Assembly: GCA_045594705.1 (NCBI GenBank)
Contig: JAZNZB010000040.1
Location: 1 to 60,952 of the forward strand
DNA: 60,952 bases
Direction: 5' to 3'
Source of the DNA: Eubacteriales bacterium
GTDB lineage: Bacteria; Bacillota; Clostridia; Oscillospirales; CAG-272
The notes under the pieces were generated by a model that had not been told where the DNA came from, did not search any database, and was given only the letters and a program-made list of their open reading frames with translations. The position numbers were made by a program, and so were the translations under genes. Of the stretch, positions 12,404 through 24,196 are shown piece after piece. How positions within the stretch are numbered: the stretch's first letter is position 1; each line of letters starts with the position of its first letter.

Positions 12404-13330
12404 ATGCAAGACCCATACGGTTATTCTTCCGGTAGCACCTCACACTCCCCGGAGGATGACGCTTACAGAAACGAACAATACGACGTAGAGCTTTTGAAAA
12501 GCTACAAGGAGCTTTTGGATTGCGGCATTATCACACAGGACGAATTTGACGCCAAGAAAAAAGAGATTCTGAACAAGAATCGACAAAGCGCGCAAACGCC
12601 GCCTCCCGCACCCAAGTCCGAGCCTGCGACGCAAGCATGGCAGTCCCAGCAATACGACGAGCTGTTTCGCCAGCCCGTAAAGGCAACGCCCTCCCCTGCT
12701 TATGAGCCGGAATACGTGCCGCCCCGCATCTGCGACAAGTGCGGCAAGATCATTCCCGACGGCGAGGACTCCTGCCCCCTCTGCGCCATTCGCGAAAACG
12801 CTGCAGAGGCCTCCAAGATGCCCAAATTCAGAGGCATGAAATGGAACAAATTTCTGTGCGTGCTGCTTTTACTGTCCGGCATTTACTATATCTTCAACGC
12901 TATCGGCTCTTTGCTGATTCTGAGCTCGGCCTGCACACCCGAACTTGCCGAGAGTGACCTCTTTGGCTATACCGGATTTGTGGGTCTTGTGTTCTCCGCG
13001 GTTATGATCGCACTGTCCTTTGTCACCAGAAGCGCGCTGGAATGGAACAAGAAAAAAGGTCCGCGCCTTCTGTTTGCCTGGCTGAACATGGATCTGATCA
13101 CGGTAGGCGCAGTTCTTGCGGTCTACGTCTTCTTCAACCTTGAGGACTCGATCGATTTCGTGCTCGACATGCTGCTGGATATTCCGTGGGTGATCGATAA
13201 GATCGTTACTTATTCCGAGATCAGCATCCCCGTTGCCATCGCGCTGGCGATCTACGTTGCGATCAAGCTGCTGATCAATGTTCCCCACGCCATCTATTAT
13301 CGCCACAGAAAGCACATTTTCGTATATTAA
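12404..13330 (+). CDS. membrane protein with an N-terminal SHOCT domain and zinc ribbon
   Basis: 'LKSYKELLDCGIITQDEFDAKKKEIL' (SHOCT), CxxC-x9-CxxC, four C-terminal TM helices; AAGGAG RBS before ATG 12404. Confidence 0.8.
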   Translation: MQDPYGYSSGSTSHSPEDDAYRNEQYDVELLKSYKELLDCGIITQDEFDAKKKEILNKNRQSAQTPPPAPKSEPATQAWQSQQYDELFRQPVKATPSPAYEPEYVPPRICDKCGKIIPDGEDSCPLCAIRENAAEASKMPKFRGMKWNKFLCVLLLLSGIYYIFNAIGSLLILSSACTPELAESDLFGYTGFVGLVFSAVMIALSFVTRSALEWNKKKGPRLLFAWLNMDLITVGAVLAVYVFFNLEDSIDFVLDMLLDIPWVIDKIVTYSEISIPVAIALAIYVAIKLLINVPHAIYYRHRKHIFVY

Positions 13331-13344
13331 TCGCATAAATACAT

Positions 13345-13410
13345 TCATAAAGAAAGAGACCGTGCAGATGCACGGGCTCTGATGCTTGCATATAAAGAGA
13401 CACCACAACA
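13345..13410 (-). ncRNA. candidate small RNA of about 60 nt
   Basis: Bounded by a minus-strand promoter (13416-13444) and a hairpin with U-rich tail (13345-13380); no RBS-supported ORF. Confidence 0.45.
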
Positions 13411-13415
13411 TTTTC

Positions 13416-13444
13416 ATTATATCACACTCGTTTTGGTTTGTAAA
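13416..13444 (-). promoter_or_regulatory. sigma-A promoter (leftward)
   Basis: TTTACA-17bp-TATAAT with an extended TG. Confidence 0.65.
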
Positions 13445-13529
13445 TAGGTTTTTTCAAGAAAAATAGCACTTGTCACAACTTTCTACCCTTTCAACAAAAT
13501 TTTCTTGTTAACTTTGTGCGCTCTGTGTA

Positions 13530-13558
13530 TTGCAAAACCCCAAAAAGTATGCTACAAT
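13530..13558 (+). promoter_or_regulatory. sigma-A promoter (rightward)
   Basis: TTGCAA-17bp-TACAAT with an extended TG. Confidence 0.7.
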
Positions 13559-13564
13559 ATAGTC

Positions 13565-13951
13565 ACAGGAAAGGAAGGTACACGCCAATGAAGAATTAAG
13601 CGCGGACCCCTTGCAAAGGCAACGAGAGAGAAAATCGTCCGGACAAAAACAAACAAAGGCCCAGGATGCCTATATATCTATGATCAGCATGCATCACGAT
13701 CATAAAACTGTAAGTCCTTTGCAATGAGTCATACGACCTTCGCCCTTTGGAGCAATCGATTCACAACACAAATAATGGTGTTCTCCGTAGAGAATTAGAA
13801 GTAATGTGAGTTTGGGAACGTGAAGGATGGGCAACAAAGAGGTAGATTAAGAAAGAGAGGATAAAGAAAATGATGTTAGATACCAAGAACGATGAGAAGT
13901 GACCCTTGATTTCGGATTTACGCCCCGAGGTCAAGGGTCACTTCTCTTTTT
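13565..13951 (+). ncRNA. candidate structured RNA of about 385 nt, family unknown
   Basis: Own promoter, strong terminator, several nested helices, only mini-ORFs of 24 codons or fewer. Confidence 0.55.
13894..13951 (+). terminator. strong intrinsic terminator
   Basis: 16-bp perfect stem GAGAAGTGACCCTTGA/TCAAGGGTCACTTCTC followed by TTTTT. Confidence 0.8.
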
Positions 13952-14040
13952 GTCGGAAATTTCATCTCGCGCACTCCGGGAGCTCTCGGGGCTTTTTTGT
14001 TTTTTTACGCCATGATCTCTTGACAAGATTCTGAACACGA

Positions 14041-14085
14041 AATAAAAGCAGCCGCCGAGGAAAAAACTCGGCGGGTTTTTTGTTT
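14041..14085. terminator. bidirectional terminator downstream of the collagen-like pseudogene
   Basis: CCGCCGAG/CTCGGCGG stem flanked by A-rich and T-rich tracts. Confidence 0.7.
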
Positions 14086-14103
14086 GCCTGCGTTTTTTAC
14101 AGG

Positions 14104-14323
14104 TCAAGCAAGCTGCGTGATGACAAGATGCGCGGACACAGGGCGCGTGCCGCCTGCAACGGGCGTGACAGTCAGTGCCGCAGCGTTGCTTGCGGGATTG
14201 CGGACAGTCATCACTCTCGTCATAGCAGCCTCTCTGATCGTTGCAGCCGCATTGATCCTCGCCTTGCTCATTGCCGCGGTAGCGATCACGATCGTTTCGC
14301 ATATACGGATTTTGTCTGCTCAT
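14104..14323 (-). pseudogene. internally deleted, frameshifted spore collagen-like (exosporium-type) protein gene
   Basis: AAGGAGG RBS and ATG give a Cys/acidic leader (MSRQNPY...GCYDESDDCP). A different frame from about 14210 encodes TVRNPASNAAALTVTPVAGGTRPVSAHLVITQLA*, which resembles the C-terminus of clostridial collagen-like proteins. The stop lies just before a terminator. Confidence 0.6.
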
Positions 14324-14444
14324 ATAGTTACCTCCTTTGCAGAATTGGTAAAGTCACCACTGTCAGTATGTGTCACATTTTGTCGGGCAGATACTGTACG
14401 CGTACTCTGCCCTTTCCGTTATTTCGGAGATTTGCCATCACCGC

Positions 14445-14493
14445 TTGACATCCGACAAAAAACGGAGTACAATATAATATGAACAAGTTCATA
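14445..14493 (+). promoter_or_regulatory. sigma-A promoter with a palindromic operator (probably bound by TetR)
   Basis: TTGACA-17bp-TACAAT (14445-14473), then TATGAAC-AA-GTTCATA (14478-14493) at the predicted transcription start. Confidence 0.7.
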
Positions 14494-14510
14494 AAAGCAG
14501 AGGTTCTGAT

Positions 14511-22513: not shown

Positions 22514-24196
22514 TCATTTACATTCGGTGCAGATATACTCCGGCACCGTTCTTTCGTTTATAACCGATTCATACAGCCGCCATCCGCCCGCGAGATTGTA
22601 GCATTCAAATCCGTTGCCCGCAAGGATGCGGCAAGCGATATAGGAGCGCAGGCCCGAGTGGCAATGCACGTACACGGGCTTGCCTGCGGGAACCTCGCCA
22701 AGACGCTTGCGCAACGAGTCCAGCGGAATATGCATAAAGCCTTCGATCTTTCCGCGCGCTACCTCGGTATCGGTGCGGGTATCAAGCAGAGTCACACTAC
22801 CGTCACGCGGGAGCTTTTCCACGTCGTGCCAGAAAAACTGCCCGATCTTGCCCGTGATCACGTTTTCGGCAACAAAGCCGACCATATTGACAGGATCCTT
22901 GGCAGAGCCGAATGGGGGCGCATAGCAGAGTTCCAATTCGGCAAGGTCAGTCACCTTCGCGCCAAGCCGTATCGCGGTGGCGATCACGTCCATACGCTTA
23001 TCCACACCGTCAAAGCCCACGATCTGCGCGCCCAGGATCTTGTGCGTCACCTTATCCCACAGCACCTTGACCGACATCATGGACGCACCCGGATAGTAGG
23101 AGGCGTGAGACGCGGAGTAGGTGTAGGTCTTATCATAATCATAGCCTGCCGCAGCTGCGCTCTTTTCATTCAGACCCGTGGTGGCTACCGTCATATCAAA
23201 GAGCTTCAGCACCGACGAGCCCTGCGTGCCCTTGTACTCCGAGGGAATGCCGCAGATATTGTCCGCCGCAATGCGGCCTTGCTTGTTGGCAGGGCCTGCA
23301 AGCGGGATGAAGGACGGCTCACCCGTCACGAAATTCCGCACGGTCACCGCATCGCCCACGGCGTACACGTCGGGAGCACTTGTCTGCATTCTCTCGTTGA
23401 CGATGATGCTGCCGCGCCCGTCGGTCTCAATGCCCGAGGATCTGACAAATGCGGTATCGGGGCGAACACCGACAGACAAGAGCACCATATCCGCTTCAAC
23501 CGTTCCTTGATTCAGCTCTACGGTCAATCCCCTGCCGTGATCCTGCACGGCGACGACGCCGTTCCCAAGCGCGAGCCTGATGCCTTTCGACTTGATATAT
23601 CTGTGCACGTCCGCGGCCATATCGAAATCCAGAGGCGCGATCAGATGGTCGGACAGCTCCACGATGGTCACGACAAGTCCGGCCTTGACAAGGTTTTCAG
23701 CCATCTCCACGCCGATATATCCGCCGCCGACAACGACTGCCGATTTCGGATGCCTTTCTTCTATATACTGCTTGATCTTGATCGTATCGGGAATATTGCG
23801 CAGGGTAAAGACCTTGTCGCTCTCAATTCCTGCAATGCCCGGACGAATGGGAGCAGCACCGGGAGAAAGCACCAGGCTGTCATACCGCTCGGTGTATTCC
23901 TCGCCCGTTTTCAGATCTCTGAGTGTAACAGTCTTGTTTTGTGTATCTATGGCAATCGCCTCGCAAAACGTGCGCACGTCGATATTGAAACGTGCCTTGA
24001 AGCTCTCGGGGGTTTGCAGCGTGAGATTGCCTTTTTCGGTGATATCACCGCCGACGTAATAAGGAAGGCCGCAGTTGGCAAAGGAAATGAACTCCCCGCG
24101 CTCGAATATGATGATCTCGGCTTTCTCGTCAAGCCGTCTGAGTCTTGCCGCGCAGGACGCACCGCCCGCCACGCCTCCTATGATCAAGGTCTTCAT
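22514..24196 (-). CDS. cdr: CoA-disulfide reductase-rhodanese fusion (CoADR-RHD, persulfide reductase type)
   Basis: 'GGVAGGAS', 'SFANCGLPY', 'GGGYIG', 'YAPPF', C-terminal rhodanese 'HCHSGLRSY'. Confidence 0.92.
   Translation of the reverse strand: MKTLIIGGVAGGASCAARLRRLDEKAEIIIFERGEFISFANCGLPYYVGGDITEKGNLTLQTPESFKARFNIDVRTFCEAIAIDTQNKTVTLRDLKTGEEYTERYDSLVLSPGAAPIRPGIAGIESDKVFTLRNIPDTIKIKQYIEERHPKSAVVVGGGYIGVEMAENLVKAGLVVTIVELSDHLIAPLDFDMAADVHRYIKSKGIRLALGNGVVAVQDHGRGLTVELNQGTVEADMVLLSVGVRPDTAFVRSSGIETDGRGSIIVNERMQTSAPDVYAVGDAVTVRNFVTGEPSFIPLAGPANKQGRIAADNICGIPSEYKGTQGSSVLKLFDMTVATTGLNEKSAAAAGYDYDKTYTYSASHASYYPGASMMSVKVLWDKVTHKILGAQIVGFDGVDKRMDVIATAIRLGAKVTDLAELELCYAPPFGSAKDPVNMVGFVAENVITGKIGQFFWHDVEKLPRDGSVTLLDTRTDTEVARGKIEGFMHIPLDSLRKRLGEVPAGKPVYVHCHSGLRSYIACRILAGNGFECYNLAGGWRLYESVINERTVPEYICTECK

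Follow-up and report, generated by a model that had tools for sequence, protein, structure and literature searches.

In this study, we describe a small RNA gene in a 60,952-nucleotide (nt) stretch of DNA from Eubacteriales bacterium (Bacillota; Clostridia; Oscillospirales; CAG-272), which is contig JAZNZB010000040.1 of GenBank assembly GCA_045594705.1, positions 1 to 60,952 of the forward strand, and which at its full length is called the window throughout. Positions 13530-13951 of the window are a separately transcribed RNA gene of about 385 nt from a family not yet described. Its layout, as predicted from 5′ to 3′, would be the RNA 5′ end, a Shine-Dalgarno (SD) site, a 3-codon open reading frame (ORF), two folded domains, a second SD site, a 9-codon ORF and a terminator that overlaps the stop codon of that ORF. 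An original prediction, made by a model from the letters of the sequence, had placed a structured non-coding RNA at this locus.

A stand-alone transcription unit

The promoter (13530-13558, plus strand) has a −35 hexamer TTGCAA at 13530-35, a 17-nt spacer and an extended −10 element TGcTACAAT, with TG at 13550-51 and TACAAT at 13553-58. It agrees with the consensus in 9 of 12 positions in the promoter scan, which by itself is not significant (4 promoter-like sites in 2 kb vs 2.3 ± 1.5 in shuffled sequence). Both hexamers are conserved in 14 of the 14 sequences of the genus alignment, and the promoter TTGCAA-17-(TG)TACAAT of the original prediction is present. Transcription would start near 13565. 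The terminator (13894-13951, plus strand) is built from a 16-base-pair (bp) stem GAGAAGTGACCCTTGA/TCAAGGGTCACTTCTC (13894-13909/13931-13946), to which six inner pairs add to give a 22-bp hairpin (13894-13946), followed by a run of five T (the U-tract, 13947-13951); it is longer than the 16 bp claimed for it, and the consensus scan did not list it because its 9-nt loop exceeds the scan range of 3-8. Compensatory changes occur at two pairs of this stem inside the genus, and its arms covary between genera. The proposal of a stand-alone unit is supported.

Ten RNA-labelled sequencing runs contain part of the stretch. Contigs assembled from four RNA libraries of four studies map on 13573-13911, and several short ones lie entirely within the unit (among them X1, 314 nt, 13579-13892, with 1 difference; X6, 171 nt, 13573-13743; X3, 193 nt, 13583-13774); the X2 contigs start at 13577 and 13578. 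Across the four studies the starts fall at 13573-13583, at most 10 nt apart and with no loose ends there, which is a weak hint of an RNA 5′ end near the predicted position of about 13565. Contigs are absent from 13435-13542 and from 13921-14100, and such missing cover was not counted as evidence. In one gut metatranscriptome the contig depth over a conserved piece of 65 nt came to 2661, a value that adds up contigs from relatives and gives a poor idea of level.

Two ribosome-binding modules with very short reading frames

The 5′ SD site GGAAAGGAAGG (13568-13578, plus strand) lies about 3-4 nt after the presumed 5′ end and is invariant in 14 of 14 genus sequences. Nine nt beyond it starts a mini-ORF, ATG AAG AAT TAA (M-K-N-stop; 13588-13599, plus strand), which inside the genus encodes MKN, MNK or MNN and always ends in TAA. 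This module is conserved across the order and the class: a loose regular expression found it in 63 of 80 units of other genera (a stricter first pattern caught 22 of the 80), and some of the remaining 17 loci are incomplete. The mini-ORF has no more than three codons in 58 of the 63 units (three codons in 51, two in 7), against an expected share of 19% for ORFs that short when the downstream 60 nt are shuffled, or 31% given the 13-codon cut-off. Its stop is TAA in 53 of the 63, and the commonest peptides in the other genera are MYR (14), MNR (6) and MYK (5). Judged from these sequences, the 5′ mini-ORF is under selection for an immediate stop. Some units carry the module in series: there are three or four copies in a single unit at locus L044 (genome G044) and at least two at L039 (G126), each an SD site followed by a 3-codon ORF, with the peptides MEK, MEK and MEN.

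At the other end of the RNA, a second SD site, GAAAGAGAGGA (13851-13861, plus strand), is nearly invariant in 18 of 18 sequences and precedes a 9-codon ORF, MLDTKNDEK (13873-13902, plus strand; ATG TTA GAT ACC AAG AAC GAT GAG AAG TGA). A further ATG in frame, at 13870, lacks conservation. The consensus of the ORF is M-L-D-[I/T]-K-[S/N]-x-x-K. In a set of 29 distinct sequences, all drawn from model-based and not from pattern-based hits, the length is nine codons in 22; one further copy (L037) was not parsed and reads by eye MKTDFKSEQK. The leucine codon is TTA in 21 of the 29, CTA in 4, TTG in 2 and CTT in 1, with GTA in 1; the aspartate codon is GAT in 26 and GAC in 2, with GAA in 1; and the lysine codon is AAG in 26 and AAA in 3. 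These three positions thus hold 12 synonymous vs 2 non-synonymous variants, both of the latter in the most divergent copy. This pattern is a signature of selection at the level of the amino acid, and synonymous changes at the first position of the leucine codon (TTA/CTA) are hard to explain without translation. The 5′ arm of the terminator holds the last two sense codons and the stop of this ORF, and the stop is there in every copy. In 26 of the 29 the stop is followed by C, a weak context for termination.

The original prediction had seen no real ORF in the unit. That view holds for long ORFs, of which there are only frames of 34-57 amino acids (aa), and the indels of the alignment are not multiples of three; it fails for the two conserved micro-ORFs of 3 and 9 codons with their SD sites. 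Nor is the proposal of a purely non-coding RNA supported, given the 12 synonymous vs 2 non-synonymous variants of the 9-codon ORF.

Two loci (L048 in genome G169 and L049 in G136) are of a divergent type with the same 3′ architecture of SD site, 8-9-codon ORF and terminator; their peptide is MLEPAHEMK or LEPANSMK, and the 5′ mini-ORF is not evident. Both genomes also carry one standard copy each, and the divergent type may be a sister family.

The beginning MLD[I/T]K recalls the N-terminus of seryl-tRNA synthetase (SerRS), and many SerRS proteins start MLDxK. The 9-codon ORF might accordingly be a decayed copy or mimic of the 5′ end of a serS gene, and one of the 80 pattern matches that were fetched (L059) is indeed a true serS start, MLDIKKIKENPDAV. 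The host serS (contig C81, about 65197, minus strand), on the other hand, starts MIDINYIKNNPEEV (MIDINYIK), has no leader and stands directly after a parB-like gene, the length of the 9-codon ORF is conserved and not decaying, and no T-box matches; such an origin is scarcely credible.

A 16S gene was not found in the host metagenome-assembled genome (MAG) or in five relatives. In three other genomes of the order, one of which carries the RNA, the 16S gene, found by a primer pattern, ends GGATCACCTCCTTTCTA, and both SD sites match the 16S tail GGAUCACCUCCUUUCUA of these three genomes. The predicted duplexes with this tail, which include bulges, have energies of −15.9 kcal/mol at the 5′ site and −13.2 kcal/mol at the 3′ site. 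In the window, the partition function gives the 5′ SD an accessibility of 0.32 and the 3′ SD one of 0.83. Two ideas about these sites were considered and rejected. Firstly, a switch that masks the SD sites is not indicated, as no consistent masking occurs over 60 units, and neither is constitutive exposure. Secondly, a "super-SD" of the rre type does not fit SD sites of ordinary strength. The ribosome sponge that had been suggested for this RNA finds its two ribosome-binding sites here, together with a predicted affinity for the 16S tail that is ordinary, and it may hold in a weaker form.

The same suggestion had included a protein sponge based on GGA motifs, which would be of the CsrB/RsmZ type and titrate a CsrA-like protein. 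GGA/AGGA motifs do occur in the window at 13568-78, 13824-27 and 13857-61. However, they fall in SD sites, with a start codon at the right spacing after each; the 5′ module of most other lineages reads AGAAAGGGTGAT, without GGA; and the CsrA family PF02599 was not found in the host genome, which is 95.5% complete, in a search in which control genomes gave matches. With no CsrA gene found and GGA not conserved in other lineages, next to no weight can be given to this idea.

Distribution and genomic context

In a DNA search, 13 of the 15 other genomes of the genus gave full-length homologues, 72-97% identical, and in four other genera this search matched both ends of the RNA only. The host genome has a single copy of the RNA and, by nhmmer, no further copy of the 5′ module. 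R1, a covariance model of the 3′ end of the RNA (the 3′ module), matches 19 of 151 genomes in a sample of the order, spread over 16 of 97 genera, and 11 of 151 in a sample of the class, of which 9 lie outside the order; both tallies include the host genome, and the counts are floors because the searches ran with Infernal's stricter filters. Scanning records of one genome per species for an exact pattern yielded at least 122 stretches. The titles among the pattern matches listed are mostly Oscillospiraceae, Acutalibacteraceae, Ruminococcaceae, Faecousia or "Clostridia bacterium", and the cultured carriers among them are Oscillibacter valericigenes An907 and Brotocaccenecus cirricatena. Some genomes have two or three copies, and one (G023) has three tandem units, each with its own promoter. 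The family is widespread in gut Clostridia, in Oscillospirales-type lineages and in neighbouring orders.

No described family accounts for it. With the whole window scanned against Rfam 15 at the gathering threshold, nothing matched on the RNA, and V_AS7 elsewhere (24009-24177) was the only match; the region 13300-14150 at E ≤ 10 gave terminator-like noise only, and no match to the RNA itself came from nine homologous loci of other orders at E ≤ 0.5. ARAGORN reported 0 tRNA or tmRNA genes in 13000-14500. These scans agree with the statement that hallmarks of tmRNA, RNase P, SRP, T-box and 6S RNA are lacking, and they gave no match to raiA, OLE or ROOL either. The claim of novelty, for which a comparison with Rfam had been proposed, is supported. 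Searches for the peptide sequences, and for noncoding RNA or small ORFs of Oscillospiraceae (the latter judged by the titles of the papers listed), found no publication on this RNA; it is on these literature searches together with Rfam that we call the family not described.

The neighbours of the RNA are not conserved, the 47 flanking ORFs of 19 loci belonging to unrelated families. By our reading of the ORF table, the gene that comes next downstream shares the strand of the RNA in 8 loci and is convergent to it in 8. In the window the RNA is accompanied by a SHOCT-domain membrane protein, a Cys-rich ORF, a hydrolase and TetR, and downstream of its terminator come two further terminator-like sites and, after them, a convergent ORF.

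This context bears on the possibility that the RNA is a cis-acting leader or attenuator, in which stalling on the 3- or the 9-codon ORF would control read-through of the terminator in the manner of the vmlR/lmo0919 leaders or of leader peptides. An SD site followed by a three-codon ORF with a TAA stop is the format of the vmlR upstream ORF (uORF) MIN (PMC9226507). The stop of the 9-codon ORF within the 5′ arm of the terminator in every copy, and the C after it in 26 of 29, would also suit such a device. However, it is very unlikely, because there is no conserved downstream gene: the neighbours are unrelated, and in 8 of 16 loci a convergent gene comes next. Moreover, the terminator in the window is backed by the two further terminator-like sites and the convergent ORF, each of the G023 tandem units has its own promoter, and the peptide has no run of regulatory codons.

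Structure of the RNA

The RNA has a minimum free energy of −101.2 kcal/mol (z = −2.70), with 1 of 100 shuffled sequences equally low. RNAalifold, run on the genus alignment of 14 sequences, predicts a fold of 67 pairs, and compensatory changes are present at 16 of these. There are two helix-closed domains, at roughly 13611-13724 and 13742-13843. The original prediction was right in seeing a two-domain RNA, which is conserved with covariation, and it misassigned the pairs that close domain 2.

Domain 1 (13611-13724, plus strand) is predicted to be closed by TTGCAAAGG/CCTTTGCAA and holds hairpins at 13658-13670 and 13679-13704. The closing helix had been proposed, and its 7 core pairs are invariant, so that covariation gives evidence neither way; in an alternative from RNAalifold, CCTTTGC pairs with the 5′ SD site instead of helix H1, and those pairs are invariant as well. 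TATGATC/GATCATA (13679-85/13698-704) is real, with 6 of 7 pairs compensatory in the genus alignment, and at one pair of the hairpin at 13658-70, 6 sequences have C-G in place of U-A. Domain 1 also holds the single-stranded motif UAUAUAUCU (13671-13679, plus strand), which reads UUAAUAUAGAU in other orders. By eye, a hairpin followed by UUAAUAUAGAU is common to the class-level members, and the AUAUAGA motif recurs across orders.

For domain 2 the original prediction had paired CCTTCGC with GTGAAGG, which has 0 compensatory pairs and 3 pairs that vary by breaking only, and is not supported. The covarying partner of 13742-13749 is 13835-13843 (CAAAGAGGT). The closing helix is thus formed by an anti-SD-like strand, GCCCUUUG (M3, 13742-13749, plus strand), on the 5′ side and by CAAAGAGGU (M4, 13835-13843, plus strand) on the 3′ side, and 5 of its 8 pairs are compensatory in a 19-sequence alignment, which adds six sequences from class-sample genomes outside the order and the named record L058. 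Inside the domain, the hairpin GUUCUC-CGUA-GAGAAU (M2, 13780-13795, plus strand), which includes the proposed TTCTC/GAGAA, does not vary in the genus but covaries in other orders, where 3 of its 6 pairs have compensatory changes. ATTCACA/TGTGAGT is weak, with 1 compensatory pair and many breaks in the genus alignment. Over the 14 pairs of the domain 2 helix and M2, 8 have changed on both sides vs 2.8 ± 1.1 in shuffles (0 of 500 shuffles reached this). In the partner-swap test with 12 lineage representatives, cognate strands gave −10.55 vs −7.40 ± 0.66 kcal/mol for permuted ones, and 0 of 20000 permutations were as low. The stretch that had been described as an unpaired A/G-rich tail is no unpaired sponge region; it contains the covarying strand 13835-13843, the SD site at 13851-13861 and the 9-codon ORF. 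An anti-SD-like UUCUCCUUA hairpin recurs across orders by eye. When 63 units are aligned globally, only the two end modules can be matched up, and the middle of Oscillospiraceae-type members cannot.

It is possible, on this evidence, that the folded body is the functional part, as a base-pairing small RNA (sRNA) or as an RNA that binds a protein or the ribosome, and that the micro-ORFs merely dock ribosomes for stability or titration while their peptides are irrelevant. The covariation of the domains is what such a pure riboregulator would lead one to expect, as is the recurrence of the single-stranded motif and of the UUCUCCUUA hairpin. Further points in its favour are that a lack of fixed genomic context is typical of trans-acting sRNAs, that the mini-ORF peptide is variable (MKN, MYR, MNR, MYK and others) and that some genomes hold two to three copies. 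We rate this explanation as rather unlikely. It leaves the 12 synonymous vs 2 non-synonymous variants of the leucine, aspartate and lysine codons unexplained, the middle of the RNA is poorly conserved in Oscillospiraceae-type members, where the two translation modules are the most conserved parts, and the ordinary strength of the SD sites speaks against a dedicated 30S sponge.

Features next to the unit

Just upstream of the −35 hexamer, the block AACTTTGTGCGC (13510-13523, plus strand) is conserved in the genus alignment and is a possible operator for a regulator. In other genera a TTTGTACAA palindrome stands upstream of the −35 hexamer in many loci, as seen by eye and not counted.

A divergent sigma-A-type promoter, TTTACA-17-TGnTATAAT (13416-13444, minus strand; 11 of 12 matches, with the TG), is as conserved as the RNA itself. 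In 14 of 14 loci of the genus, neither the promoter nor the first 17 nt transcribed from it vary. It is present as TTGACA/TTTACA in 42 of 63 units of other genera, at a fixed distance of about 79-105 nt from the −35 hexamer of the RNA, and by eye in class-level loci. Its predicted transcript starts AUGUUGUGG in the genus and (A)UGUUGGG across loci. A terminator-like hairpin (13360-13375, minus strand) would end it after about 55 nt, and in other loci the divergent promoter is followed by a hairpin and T-run or by a gene. The divergent promoter could serve to make a tiny RNA, to insulate the locus or to link the activity of both promoters by supercoiling. Pairing of the divergent transcript with the RNA was considered and set aside, the best duplex sites being inconsistent in the 14 genus loci.

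On the minus strand at 13931-14323 lies a Cys-rich ORF of 130 aa with a good SD site at 14323 and no Pfam match. A bidirectional terminator-like hairpin (14052-14074) falls within its frame, with no in-frame stop before the hairpin; either the real gene differs or the transcript would end without a stop codon. The V_AS7 ("Vibrio RNA AS7") match at 24009-24177 on the plus strand (91.8 bits vs a gathering threshold of 90) is odd for Clostridia and may be the antisense of a conserved protein gene.

Interpretation

The gene is observed, as are its conservation and structure and the coding signature of its 9-codon ORF. On this basis we tentatively favour the reading that this is a ribosome-engaged small mRNA or dual-function RNA, to which we give somewhat less than an even chance. 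From this we infer translation in vivo, stabilisation or sensing that depends on the ribosome, and an activity of the peptide. In such a mechanism a ribosome initiating on the 5′ mini-ORF would cover the first ~30 nt and might shield the RNA from 5′-to-3′ decay by RNase J, which is encoded in the host genome (610 bits). The mini-ORF may also report ribosome stalling, like the three-codon uORFs of vmlR-type leaders, and its immediate stop would prevent ribosomes from unfolding the body of the RNA. The folded body would stabilise or regulate the RNA, and the 9-residue peptide would be a conserved translated product, either as a free micro-peptide or as a nascent chain.

Several points weigh against this reading. 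The sequences that were counted are related, so that the counts exceed the number of independent events, and the conservation of the 9-codon ORF could partly reflect constraint at the RNA level because its last codons form the terminator stem. We infer translation of both ORFs from their sequences; the SD sites are ordinary, as 4180 sites of the genome bind the 16S tail at −14 kcal/mol or better, and their accessibility is middling, with mean unpaired probabilities of 0.52 and 0.56 over 60 units. The RNA-library contigs give neither transcript ends, strand nor level, and RNA libraries may contain DNA. The middle of the RNA cannot be aligned across Oscillospiraceae-type members, and its role may therefore differ between lineages. 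Finally, no precedent is known here for function of a free, hydrophilic peptide of 9 residues, and no partner gene is linked to the RNA.

An extension of the small-mRNA reading, unlikely in our view, is that the RNA serves as a free-standing sensor of the translational state. The 3-codon ORF would report stalled or scarce initiating ribosomes, and the signal would pass through the SD-like/anti-SD-like helices GCAAAGG:CCUUUGC and GCCCUUUG:CAAAGAGGU. The outputs would be the abundance or conformation of the RNA and the 9-residue peptide, which would act in trans, possibly on the ribosome, with no downstream gene as output. If true, this would be a new class of ribosome-gated riboregulator, and its peptide would be among the shortest conserved bacterial gene products known.

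In the gut communities of humans and ruminants, Oscillospirales-type Clostridia are major degraders of fibre and producers of butyrate, and to our knowledge their RNA biology is almost unknown. The design of the RNA is unusual in joining a 3-codon ORF at the extreme 5′ end, two covarying domains and a 9-codon ORF fused to the terminator. The family bears on whether peptides of fewer than 10 residues are real gene products and on whether three-codon uORFs are general ribosome sensors beyond resistance operons, and it is testable because cultured carriers exist.

Comparison with known systems

Among systems with very short peptides, the mccA micro-genes of microcin C encode a heptapeptide ending in Asn and have mccB adjacent. 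In contrast, the peptides of the present family mostly end in Lys, with no linked adenylyltransferase. It also differs from the leader-peptide attenuators trpL and hisL, in that its peptides are of the MLDTKNDEK/MLDIKSEQK type and no biosynthetic operon lies downstream.

The STAB-SD of cryIIIA is a 5′ stabiliser in Firmicutes mRNA. In the hbs mRNA, ribosomes initiating at a strong SD site block RNase J1 (PMC5737220). Our RNA resembles these stabilisers in having an SD site a few nt from its presumed 5′ end and an RNase J gene in the host genome. It is unlike them in that the SD site is coupled to a conserved 3-codon ORF and that the object protected, if stabilisation occurs by analogy, would be a small structured RNA and not a long mRNA.

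The rreB/rreR transcripts of Alphaproteobacteria are small mRNAs for peptides of 14-18 aa with 16-17 nt of SD complementarity (PMC5711450). They too are stand-alone transcripts of a few hundred nt or less for a very short peptide, with one ORF where our RNA has two and a long structured body, and the interaction with the ribosome is thought to set their fate. In contrast, the SD complementarity of the present RNA is interrupted, falls below 16 continuous nt and is of ordinary strength. Our RNA also belongs to a different phylum and has covarying structure over about 250 nt.

The vmlR leader of Bacillus subtilis, one of the antibiotic-sensing leaders of ARE-ABCF resistance genes, has a similar format. 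Its SD site AGAAGGG is followed by the uORF MIN, which also occurs naturally as MDN, MDK and MRK and stops at UAA, and translation initiation on this uORF is required for induction by lincomycin (PMC9226507). The vmlR/lmo0919 leaders and the RNA share an SD site close to the 5′ end, a uORF of about three codons with a UAA stop, and a structured RNA and intrinsic terminator downstream, and in vmlR leaders, as may be the case here, a ribosome held on the uORF alters what the downstream RNA can do. They differ in that no resistance gene or other conserved gene follows here, with no ABCF among the 47 flanking ORFs; the unit stands alone, sometimes in tandem, and its only downstream ORF has 9 codons and overlaps the terminator. 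An antiterminator-type alternative to this terminator was not found in the predicted folds of the RNA.

SR1/SR1P of B. subtilis and RNAIII/hld of S. aureus are dual-function sRNAs with small ORFs. The rnTrpL/peTrpL pair is likewise a structured regulatory RNA that also codes for a short peptide (PMC6614838, PMC7298713). Our RNA is like these in combining a structured RNA with a short peptide, both of which would be able to act. It is unlike them in lacking any relation of sequence or structure by Rfam, in its far shorter peptide, of 9 aa, and in its extra 5′ mini-ORF. The RNA is a new variety of known kinds, namely translated sRNAs and uORF leaders, and stands outside every described family.

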